12,509 nucleotides of DNA from the IMG/VR virus record IMGVR_UViG_2609460344_000006, positions 1 to 12,509 of that record. One strand, written 5' to 3'. The notes under the pieces are model-generated. The model was not told where the DNA came from. It was given only the letters and a program-made list of their open reading frames with translations, and did no database searches. Made by a program: the position numbers and the translations under genes. This DNA comes from a virus (taxonomy: Duplodnaviria > Heunggongvirae > Uroviricota > Caudoviricetes). Every line of letters begins with the position of its first letter. The stretch's first letter is position 1. This document shows, piece after piece, positions 7,559 to 12,509 of this stretch.

Positions 7559-8052
7559 CCCGGAAGCCCGGGGATTGTGATCTGCAACTGGTTAGCCAGG
7601 GAGTTAATCTCAGCGATCAAACCAGGTTTCGTGTAGCGCCATGCCGCAAGGACTTGCCCGCAGAAGCTCGCCATATCTTTTTTCTGATCAAACTCATGAC
7701 ACTTCATATTGAGCTGCGCACTTAAGCTGTTGCGATGCTGAAGTTCTCCGGTGAAGTAGTCATCCAGGACTTTATAGGCTGCATATTTAAATCCGGGGTT
7801 TAGCCATGTTGCATAATCATAAGCAACAAACTTCCCGCCATATGTTCCACCGTGTACACCGCGCTCAGTAAAAACCACAGATTCGTGGTTTTTCTCCAGC
7901 TCGGCTAAGAACTCTTTGGTCTGCTTGTTTCGCAGGTAGTGGTACGGAGATTCAGATTCACTTTTACCACTGGCTTTCCACATATCAGTGAGGCAGATCA
8001 TGCCATCTTCAGCGACACGGATTGGCTGATTGAAGAGGGTTAATGATTTCAT
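7498..8052 (-). CDS. KilA-N domain DNA-binding protein (Roi/antirepressor-like)
   Basis: From ATG 8052 the sequence MKSLTLFNQPIRVAEDGMICLTDMWKASGK...YLRNKQTKEFLAEL...GGTYGGKFVAYDYATWLNPGFKYAAYKVLDDYF is typical of KilA-N. I reject the upstream 23 codons of the track ORF. The tail PGLPGCVIVSLNAPPERGATSQRS looks out of frame. Confidence 0.85.
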   Translation of the reverse strand: MKSLTLFNQPIRVAEDGMICLTDMWKASGKSESESPYHYLRNKQTKEFLAELEKNHESVVFTERGVHGGTYGGKFVAYDYATWLNPGFKYAAYKVLDDYFTGELQHRNSLSAQLNMKCHEFDQKKDMASFCGQVLAAWRYTKPGLIAEINSLANQLQITIPGLPGCVIVSLNAPPERGATSQRS

Positions 8053-8202
8053 GTCGTATACCTGTTCTTTGAAATGAACCTTTGCCGCATAGGAAACCAG
8101 CCCACCGAGGCTCGCCAGCACTAACGGGTATCCTCAAAGGCCCATTCCAAAGGGTCAGGTTCGGTGGTTATTGTGCGCTGCGGTGCGCGGTGAAATATCT
8201 GT

Positions 8203-8228
8203 ACAAAAATGCCCCGCATCTGCGAGGC
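8203..8228 (-). terminator. Intrinsic terminator after the 83-aa gene
   Basis: Minus-strand RNA reads GCCUCGC-AGAU-GCGGGGC followed by AUUUUUGU. The U-G wobble works only on the minus strand. It is a near-copy of the terminator at 9888-9913. Confidence 0.7.
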
Positions 8229-8251
8229 TTTTAGCATGTGGAAAAGGTAGT

Positions 8252-8503
8252 TTATCGTCGCTCTTCAAGATAAGGATCTATGTTGCTAACTTTTTTGTAC
8301 TTCGGATCCTGCGGTAGTCGAACGGCGGGATCATATACAAGCCATATAGATTCAGACTTGCCATCTGAACCATCTGTGTTTTTACATGAGCGTAACTTGT
8401 AATGAATGATTCTATCTACGTCAGCGTACTCGGAGGTTGCATAAACTTCATATTTATTATCTCCGTGGCAAAGAATAGTTTTAACTAATTTTGTAGATGA
8501 CAT
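8252..8503 (-). CDS. Hypothetical 83-aa protein in AT-rich DNA
   Basis: ATG 8503 with AAGGAG 5 nt upstream. MSSTKLVKTILCHGDNKYEVYATSEYADVDRIIHYKLRSCKNTDGSDGKSESIWLVYDPAVRLPQDPKYKKVSNIDPYLEERR. No family recognised. It has its own terminator. Confidence 0.7.
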   Translation of the reverse strand: MSSTKLVKTILCHGDNKYEVYATSEYADVDRIIHYKLRSCKNTDGSDGKSESIWLVYDPAVRLPQDPKYKKVSNIDPYLEERR

Positions 8504-8589
8504 GTCTGCTCCTTTGTAATTGATGGGTATGACATATGACCACCAATAACAGTGCCATATTTCTGGTGATTATTGCAGCAACGAAATTA

Positions 8590-8620
8590 CAAGCCCACCC
8601 GTAGATGGGCTTTGTAATGG
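8590..8620. repeat. Right copy of the 31-bp hairpin-containing direct repeat
   Basis: caagcccaccCgtagatgggctttgtaatgg. It lies 30 nt downstream of the stop of the 67-aa gene. Confidence 0.9.
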
Positions 8621-8650
8621 AGAGTCGTTGTGAAAGTGGCTCTCAGACTG

Positions 8651-8854
8651 TCATTTTTTCCCTTTCTGTTTACCTGCCCACTGTTTTGCAATGTACAGGC
8701 AGTCATCGAAAATTCGGCCTTTTCTGCTGGCTTGTGAACAACGACGATAATGCTCTACGGCCATATCGGCACCCATTAAGGCGACATTGGGATCATATCC
8801 CTGTTTCACTAGGACGCTTTTCACATTACAGTGGATGAATTGGATCGGGTTCAT
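8651..8854 (-). CDS. Hypothetical 67-aa basic protein translationally coupled to the Bro-N gene
   Basis: The ATG at 8854 overlaps the Bro-N stop (ATGA at 8851-8854). MNPIQFIHCNVKSVLVKQGYDPNVALMGADMAVEHYRRCSQASRKGRIFDDCLYIAKQWAGKQKGKK. No family recognised. Confidence 0.7.
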   Translation of the reverse strand: MNPIQFIHCNVKSVLVKQGYDPNVALMGADMAVEHYRRCSQASRKGRIFDDCLYIAKQWAGKQKGKK

Positions 8855-9423
8855 GCCGACTCTCCATCAGGAAAGTCTCCTAGATCAGGAATTGATAATT
8901 GGGTCAATTGCAAGGCAATCTCTGTAGCTTTCTTGATCAATTTAATGTCACGCTTACGCTGTGCCATCAAACCACTACCTTTTTTCCCGCGATATTTGAG
9001 AGACTTTTTGTCAAACACATCTATCGCATCAAGCATTTTTTGCCCCGCAAGCTGCGGCAATGTCTCTAGATTCAAATGCCCAACCTCAACACCAGACTCT
9101 CTTTCGGCCAAATCAAGAAGCCAGATACGAAGCTCTTTAGCTATCTTGGTTCGCGACATCATGCCAATAAGGTGCGCCCCTCGAGGAGAAAACAATCGAA
9201 CCTGAGTGTAATCTATCATGCTGTTTTTATTACACTTCCTCACTTTGGTCACAATTGTCATGCTATCTGTAAACTCATCTTTATGACGATTGTAGATATT
9301 GGAAACCTTATTTGAATTCGCATAACCAAGCAGATCTGCCAATGCCTCAGCGGTAAACCAAATCTTCCCATCACCATTATCAAATGGAATCACGGTATTG
9401 TTTTTGAACGTCAGTTCGTTCAT
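8851..9423 (-). CDS. Bro-N domain protein (prophage antirepressor-like), 190 aa
   Basis: The true start is probably ATG 9423, with AGGAG 8 nt upstream. MNELTFKNNTVIPFDNGDGKIWFTAEALADLLGYANSNKVSNIYNRHKDEF...RLFSPRGAHLIGMMSRTKIAKELRIWLLD fits the Bro-N pattern. The basic C-terminal ~75 aa are unassigned. Confidence 0.85.
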   Translation of the reverse strand: MNELTFKNNTVIPFDNGDGKIWFTAEALADLLGYANSNKVSNIYNRHKDEFTDSMTIVTKVRKCNKNSMIDYTQVRLFSPRGAHLIGMMSRTKIAKELRIWLLDLAERESGVEVGHLNLETLPQLAGQKMLDAIDVFDKKSLKYRGKKGSGLMAQRKRDIKLIKKATEIALQLTQLSIPDLGDFPDGESA

Positions 9424-9560
9424 TGAGCGTACTCCTATAGAAATGAGCCTCGTTGCCCAGAAACGCCGCCCGCAGAGAGGTCGCCACCTATAACGACGGT
9501 TCTCCAAGGCTCATTTCTGTAAGGCTCTGCGATTTACATGCGCCGGGCATGGCGCAGATA

Positions 9561-9593
9561 TAAAAAAACCACCAACGCGGTAAGCGCCAGTGG
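9561..9593 (-). terminator. Intrinsic terminator in the spacer between Rz and the Bro-N gene
   Basis: Minus-strand RNA reads CCACUGGCGC-UUACC-GCGUUGGUGG (10 bp, three of them G-U pairs) followed by UUUUUUUAUAU. The wobble pairs make it specific to the minus strand. Confidence 0.6.
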
Positions 9594-9594
9594 C

Positions 9595-9681
9595 TTATTG
9601 ATACAGCCTCAAATTAATTGCCAGCACCGAGGTACCCACCCACAGAAGTTTCCCCTCGTTTTGGGGTGAGCTAGTCAACAT
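9595..9681 (-). CDS. Candidate 28-aa small protein (MLTSSPQNEGKLLWVGTSVLAINLRLYQ)
   Basis: Found by reading the sequence; it is below the ORF-track size cutoff. GGGGAG lies 5 nt before the ATG, and the stop TAA directly abuts the terminator stem at 9593. The Shine-Dalgarno sequence is the 3' arm of the hairpin CUCCCC-AAAACU-GGGGAG. Confidence 0.35.
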   Translation of the reverse strand: MLTSSPQNEGKLLWVGTSVLAINLRLYQ

Positions 9682-9887
9682 TTGCACTCCCCAGTTTTGG
9701 GGAGCTCAAACGTTCAACGATGATGCTGCAGATGCGTTCATACCGGCTTTACCTTTTAGTGATGAACCTTGTCACACAGGATTCCGGCCCACAGAAAGGC
9801 ACCGATCACCAAACCGGCATCCTCAAGGGTCATCCTGAAAGGTTCTGTGTTAATAAGTCGCGCGTGTGAAGCGCATTTACTGAGGAC

Positions 9888-9913
9888 ATAAAAAAGCCCC
9901 GCTTCTGCGAGGC
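9888..9913 (-). terminator. Intrinsic terminator downstream of Rz/Rz1
   Basis: Minus-strand RNA reads GCCUCGC-AGAA-GCGGGGC followed by UUUUUUAU, about 45 nt after the Rz stop. Confidence 0.7.
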
Positions 9914-9955
9914 ATTTTCCTGAAAGTCACTTGTTAAATTTCAGTGAAGTTAAAA

Positions 9956-10399
9956 TTATTTTAAGCACTGAGTCCTGATGTACTCCTGCAGGTAGTTAAC
10001 CTGCGCGGTTATCTTGTCGATTCCACTTCGGAGACGGTAATAATTGAGTTCAGCATCTGCTGTAAGTCTTGGGCTTTCTCCATCGCCCATGCTGCTGGCT
10101 CCGGTAGTTGACTTTGCACAGGTGGCGGCGACTTGCAGGCGCTTACGCCCAGCAGAAACATCAGCACGGAGACTTTCAATAGTCGCGTTAGCATCAGCAA
10201 GCTCCTTTGTGTATCTGGTGTCAAGTTCTGCTACATCACGTTGCCGCTTCTGCATATCAGCGATGATGGATGTGGCTTTATCGCGCTGCGCTTTGTAGGT
10301 AATCGCGTTATCACGGTAATGGTCTGTTGCCATCCACAGCGCACCACAGGCCACCAGCAGAATAACGATAAACGCGGAAAGCATTCGGTTTATGTTCAC
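9956..10399 (-). CDS. Rz: i-spanin Rz
   Basis: It has an N-terminal TMD (SAFIVILLVACGALW) and then HYRDNAITYKAQRDK...MQKRQRDVAELDTRYTKELADA...RLQV, which closely resembles lambda Rz. The GTG at 10399 overlaps the upstream stop (GTGA). ATG 10384 is an alternative start. Confidence 0.9.
   Translation of the reverse strand: MNINRMLSAFIVILLVACGALWMATDHYRDNAITYKAQRDKATSIIADMQKRQRDVAELDTRYTKELADANATIESLRADVSAGRKRLQVAATCAKSTTGASSMGDGESPRLTADAELNYYRLRSGIDKITAQVNYLQEYIRTQCLK
10009..10194 (-). CDS. Rz1: o-spanin Rz1 lipoprotein, embedded in the +1 frame of Rz
   Basis: MLTRLLKVSVLMFLLGVSACKSPPPVQSQLPEPAAWAM... has a lipobox-like LGVSAC and a proline-rich mature part, and lies wholly inside Rz. This is the classic embedded spanin architecture. 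Confidence 0.8.
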   Translation of the reverse strand: MLTRLLKVSVLMFLLGVSACKSPPPVQSQLPEPAAWAMEKAQDLQQMLNSIITVSEVESTR

Positions 10400-10527
10400 C
10401 CCAGCAACCCCGACGAAGACAACATCATCCAGGCCATGGAAAGAAAAAGAGCAACCAGCATTAGTGAAAATGAAATGCCGACAATTACACAGAGGATCTT
10501 CGCCAGCGTTATGAGTTTGTCTGACAT
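10396..10527 (-). CDS. 43-aa single-TMD membrane peptide between the endolysin and Rz
   Basis: ATG 10527 is preceded by GGGAGGA 6 nt upstream. MSDKLITLAKILCVIVGISFSLMLVALFLSMAWMMLSSSGLLG. Its stop overlaps the Rz GTG. I reject the N-terminal 30 codons of the track ORF. Confidence 0.6.
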   Translation of the reverse strand: MSDKLITLAKILCVIVGISFSLMLVALFLSMAWMMLSSSGLLG

Positions 10528-10541
10528 GCTTAATCCTCCCT

Positions 10542-10724
10542 TCACGATTTCAACGCAATGACCAGTTTTGCCAGCCCATACAGCATCGGGGACACAGCAA
10601 CACCGACCGCCACCCACTTAATGGCAAAAGCCAGTGCTCTGCTGATGTCATCAGTTACAGGCGCTTTCAGTTCAAGGCCATTTTTCATAGTCAACCTCAA
10701 CAGAATTCGTTTATACTTCGCCAT
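10542..10724 (-). CDS. 60-aa protein with a basic N-terminus and a C-terminal TMD, between the endolysin and Rz
   Basis: ATG 10724 is preceded by GGGAGA. MAKYKRILLRLTMKNGLELKAPVTDDISRALAFAIKWVAVGVAVSPMLYGLAKLVIALKS. There is a 14-nt gap, carrying a strong Shine-Dalgarno sequence, before the next gene. Confidence 0.55.
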   Translation of the reverse strand: MAKYKRILLRLTMKNGLELKAPVTDDISRALAFAIKWVAVGVAVSPMLYGLAKLVIALKS

Positions 10725-10757
10725 GTTCTCCCTTGCCTTACTCAAGGTCAGAAACAC

Positions 10758-10800
10758 AAAACCCCGCTTGGTGCCAACAAACGGGGTTTTTACTTTTATT
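10758..10800. terminator. Bidirectional terminator-like hairpin between the endolysin and the small membrane genes
   Basis: AAAACCCCG-N15-CGGGGTTTT. The plus strand continues TTTTTACTTTTATT and the minus strand continues UUUUGUGUUUCUG. Confidence 0.6.
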
Positions 10801-10880
10801 CACTTACGTTTCGCCAGTTCGCAGGATTTCGTGTTATCCGCCCGCGTGGCCATACCTTATTTTTCAGCAAAATATTCTGC

Positions 10881-11414
10881 TTATCTGTCGATTCCCCAGC
10901 ACGCCAGCGCGCTCTCCTGGTCACGACGGGATACCTGACCATAACAGTTATTTGAGCGGATACGGCAGTCTCTGCCACCGTCCTTAATCCACCAGCGAAT
11001 CGCCTCACACGCTCCCCTGCGATCACCTGCATTAATTCGTTTATAAAACGTCGACGGGAAACACTTACCGGGACCAATGTTGTACGGACAGAATGACGCG
11101 ATCCCCGCTTTCTGGGGTTCACTCAATGGCACTCTGATGTTTTTCTCCACCCATGCCAGCGCCTTATCACGCTCAATGGCGTTAACCCGGTCGCATTTTT
11201 CCTTCGACAACTTCATGCCCGGAACGACAGGTTTGCCATCCACCAGGATGGCACCGCGGCAGATGGTCCAGATACCCGCGCCATCACGGTATGCCGTGGT
11301 GTGGTTACCTTCCTTTTCATCCAGAAACTGGTCGAGGATTTCAGGCGCAGGCGCACCTGCGGCAATCAGCGCCAGAACGGCAGCCGACAGGCCGTATTTG
11401 ATTTTGGTGTTCAT
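10881..11414 (-). CDS. rrrQ: SAR endolysin, T4-lysozyme family (RrrQ-like, 177 aa)
   Basis: It has an Ala/Gly-rich N-terminal signal-arrest-release segment (YGLSAAVLALIAAGAPAP). The catalytic E-8-D-5-T spacing is present in EGNHTTAYRDGAGIWT. The sequence is close to what I recall of the Qin prophage RrrQ. Confidence 0.95.
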   Translation of the reverse strand: MNTKIKYGLSAAVLALIAAGAPAPEILDQFLDEKEGNHTTAYRDGAGIWTICRGAILVDGKPVVPGMKLSKEKCDRVNAIERDKALAWVEKNIRVPLSEPQKAGIASFCPYNIGPGKCFPSTFYKRINAGDRRGACEAIRWWIKDGGRDCRIRSNNCYGQVSRRDQESALACWGIDR

Positions 11415-11464
11415 GGATATTTATCAGGGTTTATCGATTTCAAATCCCTGGATATGTTAAGTCT

Positions 11465-11809
11465 TCAGGCCAGCGGTGGAGTCTTCAGAGAACCAGTAAT
11501 TATTCCCGGTAGTTTTCCTCTGTAGGTTATCAACACATCCTGCGCCTCTAAAATTACGGGGCGCTTTTCCGGCAACGGACCATCCCCTTCACATAACCCG
11601 GCAGCAACATCCATGAAAAACTGCTTCGCCTGCTTTTTCGCCTCAGCTTCGTAAAACTCCAGCGTGGCATCTTCAGTACGGTCAAGACTAATCGCCACAT
11701 CTGGCAACAACAGTGACGGATACCCACCAATTTCCAGTGCCACAGTAACAGTAATCTTATTCGGGTAATTATTTATCCCTTTAACAACCAGTTCGTATTT
11801 TTTCTTCAT
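11465..11809 (-). CDS. ydfR: DUF1327 (YdfR-like) protein inserted between the holin and the endolysin
   Basis: 114 aa, MKKKYELVVKGINNYPNKITVTVALEIGGYP... The start lies 4 nt after the holin stop, with GGGGAGAG upstream. It occupies the same position as ydfR in the Qin order essQ-ydfR-rrrQ, as I recall it. Confidence 0.8.
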   Translation of the reverse strand: MKKKYELVVKGINNYPNKITVTVALEIGGYPSLLLPDVAISLDRTEDATLEFYEAEAKKQAKQFFMDVAAGLCEGDGPLPEKRPVILEAQDVLITYRGKLPGIITGSLKTPPLA

Positions 11810-11813
11810 CGCT

Positions 11814-12029
11814 TTACTCTCCCCGCGCCGCCTTACGACGGTCCTCTCTGATTTTGAAATACAGGTTAGTCAGATATGTCAGCAGCCCAAACAGCAGACT
11901 CCCCAGTACGCCTATTGCCGCCCACTGAGACGGGGAAACCCTGTCCAGCAACTGCAGGAACCAGTAGCCCGTTCCCACCGCTGACGTGGTGTATGACACA
12001 CCTGTTGTGATTTTTTCCATCTGGTACAT
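11814..12029 (-). CDS. essQ: Class II pinholin, S21/EssQ-like (71 aa, dual start at Met1/Met4)
   Basis: [71 protein letters not shown] is near-identical in pattern to phage 21 S. It has two TMDs, the first rich in Gly/Ser/Thr, and a basic C-terminus. Confidence 0.95.
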
Positions 12030-12104
12030 ACCCCGTCTCCCGCAATCCGGAAGCTCACAACAACAAGTGGGGCATCAGCTCACACCGACACCCCCTGCGC
12101 ATGG

Positions 12105-12374
12105 TTACATCATCATTTCGCCGTCAGGCTGAGGCTCACTGCTACCATCAGGCTGAGACCCGACGCCATCTGAAACAGCACTGTCATCCGCAATGCCTTC
12201 CGGCTCCGGAACAGTCGGTGCGCCCAGCAGTTCATCCAGAATGGCATCCACTTCTGCATCAAGACGCGCCTCAAGGTTCTGCCGAAGTTGCTGTTTCAGT
12301 GCGCTTCTGACTTCTTCAGAGCGCAGGACTTCCTTCACTGCTTCAGCAGTGACCAGCGATTTTATTTCTGACAT
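12105..12374 (-). CDS. Small acidic hypothetical protein upstream of the holin (89 aa)
   Basis: The likely start is ATG 12374 (MSEIKSLVTAEAVKEVLRSEEVRSALKQQLRQNLEARLDAEVDAILDELL...), and the tail is acidic and Pro/Gly/Ser-rich. I recall similar ORFs upstream of S in E. coli lambdoid prophages. The Shine-Dalgarno sequence is weak (GAGAAA). Confidence 0.7.
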   Translation of the reverse strand: MSEIKSLVTAEAVKEVLRSEEVRSALKQQLRQNLEARLDAEVDAILDELLGAPTVPEPEGIADDSAVSDGVGSQPDGSSEPQPDGEMMM

Positions 12375-12509
12375 GGTATTTTCTCGTTGAAAGGTGTTGT
12401 TAAGAAAGTTGCTACGGAATGAGAGGCTCTTCGGGTTTTGTTCCGGCTGACTGACTGGCACTGATTTTCTCAGCGGCCCTTTTGTCAATCTGTCTGCGCC
12501 AGAAATCTC

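Follow-up and report, generated by a model that had tools for sequence, protein, structure and literature searches.

The antisense RNAs which come closest in geometry to the element described here are SymR of the symE gene and Sok of hok-mok and, among phages, sar of P22. The element is a predicted cis-antisense small RNA gene on the plus strand of a 12,509-nt stretch of DNA from a virus of the Caudoviricetes (positions 1 to 12,509 of the IMG/VR record IMGVR_UViG_2609460344_000006), which is referred to here as the window. It lies opposite the leader of a gene for a 60-amino-acid (60-aa) membrane protein within the phage late operon. SymR, which belongs to a type I toxin-antitoxin system of E. 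coli, is reportedly about 75 nt long, with its promoter located within the first codons of symE and its transcription start site (TSS) next to the start codon. A constitutive, cis-encoded RNA of about 75 nt that runs antisense across the Shine-Dalgarno (SD) sequence and the 5' untranslated region (UTR) is what the two loci would have in common. They differ in their targets, as SymE is a soluble 113-aa protein of the AbrB fold with its own SOS-regulated promoter, whereas the target here is a membrane protein of 48/60 aa which is encoded in a phage late operon without a promoter of its own, and no likeness in sequence or in Rfam was found.

Sok/hok-mok, known from plasmid R1 and from prophage hok loci such as hokW-sokW of Sp5, shares with the window a small membrane peptide as the target, the prophage setting and, as predicted here, a short antisense RNA that is transcribed from a promoter in the 5' coding part of an overlapping frame and masks the ribosome-binding site (RBS) upstream. 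Some alleles of the cassette described here also share an upstream mini open reading frame (ORF) whose stop codon overlaps the main start (GTGA). In contrast to hok loci, there is no Hok/Gef domain (PF01848) here, no Rfam match to Sok or hok mRNA and no stable toxin mRNA from its own promoter, and no fbi/tac folding elements were identified. The sar RNA of P22 is a phage antisense RNA of about 70 nt that is transcribed from a promoter inside the transcription unit of its target, pairs with the RBS of a phage gene and ends at a terminator with activity on the sense strand too, as is predicted here. It targets the antirepressor gene ant in immI and is made in lytic growth, whereas the target here is a membrane protein of the lysis cassette and the promoter, to judge from its EDL933 homologue, is active in uninduced cells. 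In Sib/Ibs, too, the target of a cis-antisense RNA is a small hydrophobic peptide, but the Sib RNAs are about 140 nt long and span the entire ibs ORF of 18-19 aa, while the ORF here has 48-60 codons, the overlap is limited to the leader and the SD, and no homology was found.

The earlier note on this DNA had likened the arrangement to hok/sok or Ibs/Sib logic. Membership of either family was not recovered, as Pfam, Rfam, NCBIfam and PADLOC were all without a match. We file the predicted RNA as an uncharacterised member of the class of cis-antisense RNAs directed against the RBS of genes for small membrane proteins, outside any named family, because hok/sok and Ibs/Sib fail on homology and a generic type I system fails on the missing toxin promoter. 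On balance, we regard the interval as a cis-antisense small RNA gene in the 5' end of a small-membrane-protein cassette of a Q-dependent late operon. A regulatory role for this RNA is plausible and is put forward tentatively. The features on which the argument turns are as follows.

10688-10693, plus strand: -35-like hexamer TAGTCA (4/6), overlapping the complement of the internal ATG (Met13)
10712-10717, plus strand: -10 hexamer TATACT (5/6), the complement of codons Lys3-Tyr4 (AAG TAT A)
10725-10796, plus strand: predicted cis-antisense RNA of about 72 nt, 5'-GUUCUCCCUUGCCUUACUCAAGG...terminator-UUUUU, its 5' end placed by analogy with EDL933
10728-10732, minus strand: SD sequence GGGAG of the 60-aa frame (Met1), inside the predicted antisense RNA
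10688-10686, minus strand: internal start codon ATG (Met13) with SD sequence GAGG at 10698-10695 and a 6-nt spacer, giving a 48-aa product
10758-10790, both strands: hairpin with arms AAAACCCCG (10758-10766) and CGGGGTTTT (10782-10790) separated by N15
10786-10800, plus strand: U-tract TTTTTACTTTTATT for termination of the antisense RNA
10748-10761, minus strand: T-tract TTTTGTGTTTCTGA for termination of the late operon

The two hexamers and their 18-nt spacer are found at exactly the positions that the earlier note had assigned to a sigma-70 promoter. Together they match 9 of the 12 consensus positions and fall within codons 1-12 of the 60-aa ORF. It had also been held that no plus-strand protein gene ends at the hairpin, and the sole plus-strand ORF there (10558-10938) was indeed found to be a spurious antisense frame.

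The evidence for transcription comes from a homologue in prophage CP-933M of Escherichia coli O157:H7 EDL933, in which the -35 is TGGACA (5/6), the spacer again 18 nt and the -10 TATACT at 1272085-1272090 (+), with the hairpin at 1272157-1272189. An antisense TSS is listed by Cappable-seq at 1272098 (+) in all eight growth conditions of Table S6 (PMC10469882), which are given in that source as exponential and stationary phase in LB, M9, acid and salt. This start is the 8th base past the -10 and is 1 nt beyond the GTG with which the extended reading frame begins. Starts already known for SymR, SibA-E and RdlD were recovered exactly in the same study, as reported there (PMC10469882). With 5,967 antisense TSSs tabulated for 5.5 Mb, the chance of one falling within +/-1 nt of the predicted position is about 0.3%. 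The body of the RNA, from the complement of the SD to the terminator (~75 nt), is almost identical between EDL933 and the window, and the EDL933 copy differs by an additional 27 nt of leader-peptide sequence in the 5' part of the RNA. The window position equivalent to the mapped start is G10725 and the predicted RNA begins 5'-GUUCUCCCUUGCC. The homologous start makes very likely the plus-strand transcript which the earlier note had predicted from this promoter, and its presence in 8/8 conditions fits the idea, also raised there, of an RNA made in uninduced lysogens. For the window itself, the transcript is probably real by this analogy, because the EDL933 antisense TSS matches the predicted one and the hairpin is a conserved bidirectional terminator.

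The hairpin had been noticed earlier at the same place and was observed to be above chance. Its outer stem, AAAACCCCG/CGGGGTTTT, has 9 bp and is followed by an inner extension of 3-4 bp that differs by strand. A hairpin scan gave 13 pairs, of which 6 are G-C, and a loop of 7, and the folding energy is -15.7 kcal/mol (z -2.9) on the plus strand and -18.9 kcal/mol (z -3.9) on the minus strand. It lies 33-65 nt downstream of the predicted start at 10725 and is followed on the plus strand by TACTTTTATT up to 10800. The supposed superiority of the plus-strand U-tract holds marginally; 8/10 T are found on either side and the element is bidirectional. We counted the stem pairs by script in 13 variants from three genomic contexts. 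Stem position 4 was observed to be A-T in 10 variants, G-C in two and C-G in one, while position 5 is C-G in 12 variants and G-C in one. The structure of the stem is thus conserved by compensatory changes in diverged copies. As T-rich flanks occur on both sides in all 13 variants, we consider the hairpin to be a bidirectional terminator, and its sequence suggests that it is competent in the plus direction too. With bidirectional rho-independent terminators it shares a G+C-rich stem, A-tract and T-tract flanks and compensatory substitutions, but it differs from them in being located within an operon, at a gene's 5' end, and not between convergent genes. Given this location, it would therefore be a conditional barrier, to be passed by Q-modified polymerase only.

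Homologues of the predicted RNA are 74-76 nt long, and their consensus fold consists of a 5' stem-loop and the terminator. Among close relatives no pair of this fold was found with a change on both sides. In the small 5' stem-loop, wobble changes that favour one of the strands are few, three for the antisense strand and one for the sense strand.

We collected about 400 related loci. The -10 sequence TATACT was found in all lineages examined of family I (those with the 60-aa ORF), save for rare TATAAT and TACACT alleles. The -35 is TAGTCA, TGGTCA, TTGTCA or TGGACA (4-5/6), always at 18-nt spacing, and the sequence of the spacer changes by synonymous substitutions across these lineages. A near-constant -10 and a constant spacing with a changing spacer sequence fit a promoter; the conserved Lys-Tyr...Arg-Leu-Thr-Met peptide explains the pattern equally well. 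The hairpin belongs to the downstream cassette of small membrane ORFs and not to the lysozyme gene R. Its assignment to R was rejected, as prophages Sakai Sp6, Sp10, Sp11, Sp12 and BP-933W share the 3' flank of R up to the last base before the hairpin; in these prophages an antirepressor module takes the place of the cassette and there is no hairpin. In Stx2 phages such as Stx2_95 the hairpin and the SD are kept and are followed by an unrelated, unannotated membrane ORF (family II):

about 2360-2500 of Stx2a phage Stx2_95 (L002), minus strand: 46-aa membrane ORF VFDFSKLIREIRVMAEKLSTWKFILIWLVFVIMASGYFIGQIRWW, between R and Rz; also in L309 and L292

The family II ORF also has an N-terminal extension and an internal SD with ATG. 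An antisense extended -10 (TGCTAAAAT) was observed as far from the start codon of this ORF as the -10 of family I is from its own, and the comparison with synonymous recodings gave P = 0.006-0.009. In prophages of Salmonella and E. coli, members of the 60-aa family were found in two further contexts, after a nanS-p-type esterase gene and after a tail-fibre gene. In both contexts the cassette has its own copy of the hairpin, with the compensatory stems AAAGCCCCG/CGGGGCTT and AAACGCCCG/CGGGCGTTT, and directly before this copy the upstream gene has a separate sense terminator. The antisense-facing T-tract is stronger in these contexts (8-9/10 T vs 5-6). Data sets from K-12 were considered as a test and found to be unusable, since Qin is without the cassette (rrrQ overlaps rzpQ).

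Several described RNAs were considered as the identity of the predicted RNA and rejected. EcOnc10, EcOnc11 and EcOnc12 map downstream of Rz and not at the R-proximal hairpin, EcOnc33 maps inside the esterase gene and EcOnc24 maps in the tail region (Tree et al. 2014). The Pas small RNAs lie at another site, near Q and the holin gene, and hokW-sokW is a different locus.

In the mechanism which we favour, transcription in the window would start at about 10725 and stop at about 10793-10798, and the window allele would fire too, despite its weaker -35. The 5' part of the RNA would be perfectly complementary to the leader and to the SD GGGAG of the 60-aa frame. The earlier note had extended this complementarity over the start codon; it stands for the SD (10728-10732) and the leader, while the ATG is probably left uncovered, the TSS being 1 nt outside it. 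In the lysogen, the sense strand would be reached only by polymerase leaking through tR' and the same hairpin. Annealing to this read-through mRNA, the antisense RNA would block ribosome binding at Met1 and possibly trigger cleavage by RNase III. After induction, Q-modified polymerase would pass the hairpin, which would double on the sense strand as a barrier to unmodified polymerase, and the sense mRNA would come to outnumber the antisense RNA. As the Met13 start lies beyond the RNA, only the long isoform could be affected. A bolder version, in which the hairpin, the antisense promoter and the dual-start small membrane ORF form a portable regulatory cassette and the RNA sets the ratio of the 60-aa to the 48-aa isoform, is in our estimate improbable.

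A number of results weigh against an antisense RNA gene at this place. By sequence statistics alone, the match to a promoter is at chance level. The consensus scan of 3 kb found 2 sites where 2.7 were expected by chance; the position weight matrix score of 9.19 bits is reached or exceeded by 10 sites among about 25,000 window positions; and an equally good antisense site is present at 2-3 of the 13 gene 5' ends in the window. Among synonymous recodings of the same N-terminal peptide, 41% score as well (P = 0.41), and the corresponding P values range from 0.06 to 0.25 for the other alleles and from 0.06 to 0.42 when given by family-I lineage. The hexamers were found to be no less variable than the spacer when the two were compared. 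The copy in which the start was mapped is a paralogue that has a 27-nt insertion and a better -35 (5/6 vs 4/6 here), and the 3' end of the predicted RNA is placed from its U-tract. An antisense TSS is by itself no proof of function. No Rfam match was found in the whole window at E <= 1, and the Hfq-CRAC (cross-linking and analysis of cDNA) catalogue has no entry at the Sakai Sp4 copy, whose hairpin is at 1184826-1184858 (Tree et al. 2014 Table S2). Two further ORF types (III and IV) are located behind the same hairpin, and no convincing antisense promoter was found for them. The Met13 start and its SD are outside the reach of the predicted RNA. Moreover, there would be little to silence in a lysogen because the small gene has no sense promoter.

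Part of this evidence favours the explanation that the hairpin is only a bidirectional terminator and the module boundary of small-ORF cassettes in the late operon, at which unmodified polymerase is halted in the sense direction and stray transcription in the antisense direction. The promoter inside the ORF would then be one of thousands of antisense promoters that arise incidentally, in this case from AT-rich codons for a Lys/Tyr-rich N-terminus, and any RNA would be non-regulatory. The chance-level promoter match in three tests, the hairpins before ORF types III and IV without a good antisense promoter and the missing Hfq peak at the Sp4 copy all agree with it, as do the conservation of both T-tracts and the non-coding stretch of R 3' flank, hairpin and SD that is common to unrelated cassettes, as in a recombination linker. 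Non-functional transcription is a serious rival because more than half of the EDL933 genes carry antisense TSSs by the count of the mapping study, 5,967 in all (PMC10469882). We nevertheless find this explanation somewhat doubtful. The start listed for EDL933 is constitutive in 8/8 conditions and falls at exactly the predicted base, the same promoter-terminator geometry recurs in an unrelated ORF family (P < 0.01), and in two contexts an antisense-facing terminator stands beside a separate sense terminator, which is hard to explain without an antisense transcript. A different explanation takes the conservation of 10680-10717 to reflect the translation control of a dual-start gene (Met1/Met13, similar to holin/antiholin pairs), with the antisense strand being irrelevant. 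The GAGG-N6-ATG of Met13 is invariant and many annotations begin there. A Salmonella variant keeps the nucleotides even though the frame from Lys-Tyr to Met13 shifts and is then restored, and Lys3 is encoded by AAG throughout, where AAA would be just as good for the -10. Such control leaves both the mapped antisense TSS and the antisense-facing terminator unexplained, and we think it unlikely; it is also compatible with an antisense RNA gene and does not exclude it.

The third alternative is a true type I toxin-antitoxin system in which the 60-aa/48-aa peptide is toxic and an unstable antisense RNA serves as the antitoxin, for prophage maintenance or abortive infection. The small hydrophobic protein (48-60 aa) with a basic N-terminus is what such a system would require, and so is an antisense RNA such as the predicted one, over the leader and the SD and with a promoter that is constitutive in the tabulated EDL933 conditions. 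An arrangement of leader peptide or overlapping ORFs in some alleles is reminiscent of mok/hok, and the cassette is portable, occurring at several prophage positions. However, the small gene lacks its own promoter and with it the classical type I set-up: between R and the 60-aa ORF, no promoter-like site of at least 9 bits was found on the sense strand, and Table S5 of the EDL933 study lists no sense TSS for the cassette gene (PMC10469882). There is also no likeness to the Hok/Gef, Ldr, Ibs or TisB toxins or to the Sok, Sib, Rdl, SymR, IstR or OhsC RNAs, and no PADLOC match. The sense orientation of the cassette within the late operon is more in keeping with a late, lysis-associated protein than with an addiction module. 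We therefore consider a toxin-antitoxin system improbable, and the cis-antisense RNA gene within the Q-dependent late operon is the reading which we retain.

The window is a lambdoid E. coli prophage in which the late genes are on the minus strand. The genes around the predicted RNA, in the order of transcription, are as follows.

11814-12029, minus strand: class II (S21-type) holin of the late operon
11465-11809, minus strand: DUF1327/YdfR protein, between the holin and lysozyme R
10881-11414, minus strand: lysozyme R (Phage_lysozyme; of the signal-anchor-release, or SAR, type, with an N-terminal signal-anchor-like segment), upstream of the hairpin
between R and the 60-aa ORF: a gap of 156 nt that contains the hairpin
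10542-10724, minus strand: 60-aa small membrane protein (phrog_1115), ATG at 10724-10722
10396-10527, minus strand: 43-aa protein with a single transmembrane segment (phrog_4906), the second gene of the cassette
9956-10399, minus strand: Rz spanin, with which the lysis cassette ends downstream; Rz1 is embedded at 10009-10224

The small-ORF cassette is thus located between lysozyme R and the Rz/Rz1 spanins, beyond which antirepressor-like genes and then the terminase are found. The 60-aa protein has a basic N-terminal extension, MAKYKRILLRLT (+4 charge), and a hydrophobic C-terminal half, with a Kyte-Doolittle maximum (19-residue window) of 1.88 at residues 38-56. One strongly hydrophobic segment is present in each of the 60-aa and 43-aa proteins. 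Searches of Pfam, NCBIfam and PADLOC with the small proteins gave no match, PHROGs returned only families of unknown function, and a search of genome contigs with the small-protein alignment gave no confirmed locus. The region 10380-10900 was found at a coverage of at least 80% in 990 of 5,426 complete E. coli genomes, and paralogues of the cassette occur in prophages of O157:H7, E. marmotae and Salmonella. E. coli cM8a and 266917_2 are examples of strains with the allele of the window. Three proteins (P0090, P0093 and P0098) were observed to be fused or rearranged, in that the C-terminal half of the 60-aa protein follows either the N-terminus of the 43-aa protein or an out-of-frame reading of this N-terminus. 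Some prophages have evidently undergone recombination or reordering of the two small genes. The portal gene at the left end (window 1-1675, minus strand) is annotated as frameshifted in E. coli cM8a, which is the closest genome (99.7% identical), and the prophage in the window may be defective. At the site occupied by YdfR in the window, the EDL933 prophage (L401) carries the plus-strand hypothetical gene RS06280, which is inserted between the holin and lysozyme genes, antisense to the lysis genes. It is driven by a strong constitutive TSS at 1272853 (+), with a relative read score of 31-72 in all eight conditions of the published table. A similar plus-strand gene is present in L001.

The translation signals of the 60-aa frame also vary between alleles. 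The GAGG-N6-7-ATG of Met13 is kept in all lineages, and the 48-aa form that begins there is the annotated start in many genomes, including the equivalent Met of EDL933 RS06270. In the frame-shifted Salmonella variant (P0060), the stretch from Lys-Tyr to Met13 shifts by +1 and then by -1 (ILLRLT to ISVEAN) while the nucleotides are kept; this sequence suggests either that both starts are used or that the nucleotide sequence counts for more than the peptide. Some alleles carry an 8-codon mini-ORF (e.g. MGREVLSL) with a strong SD, the stop codon of which overlaps the GTG of the main frame (GTGA). They were found in Sakai Sp4 (L280; 1184727-1184826), EDL933 (L401; 1272058-1272157), L165 and L345. 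Such an overlap is an arrangement for translational coupling and is reminiscent of mok/hok.

Another plus-strand feature of the window is located at 7016-7191 (especially ~7079-7127), which is 91.5% identical to the region of Sakai Sp10 that holds EcOnc11. EcOnc10, 11 and 12 are top-ranked Hfq-CRAC peaks to which no function has been assigned (Tree et al. 2014). As the stretch lies just downstream of a plus-strand gene of the YlcI/YnfO family (6808-7008), it is probably an Hfq-binding RNA derived from the 3' UTR or terminator of this gene; Rfam has no family for it. The YlcI/YnfO gene is the sole annotated plus-strand gene in the window. A promoter-like sequence, CTGACA-17-CAAAAT, was observed at 6678-6706 (+), with a predicted TSS at about 6713, some 95 nt upstream of the gene. 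The gene is likely to be a moron which is expressed in lysogens.

The predicted RNA and both small membrane proteins are uncharacterised, and the EDL933 start is listed in a published supplementary table, where it has gone unnoticed. A functional RNA would provide the lambdoid late region with an Hfq-independent cis-antisense regulator, and the cassette would then contain either an unrecognised lysis player in phages with a pinholin and a SAR endolysin or a new type-I-like toxin family. Should the RNA indeed set the isoform ratio, a mask on Met1 that leaves Met13 free would be the RNA counterpart of holin/antiholin dual-start control, and a new lysis-timing factor would be added to the pinholin/SAR-endolysin phages.

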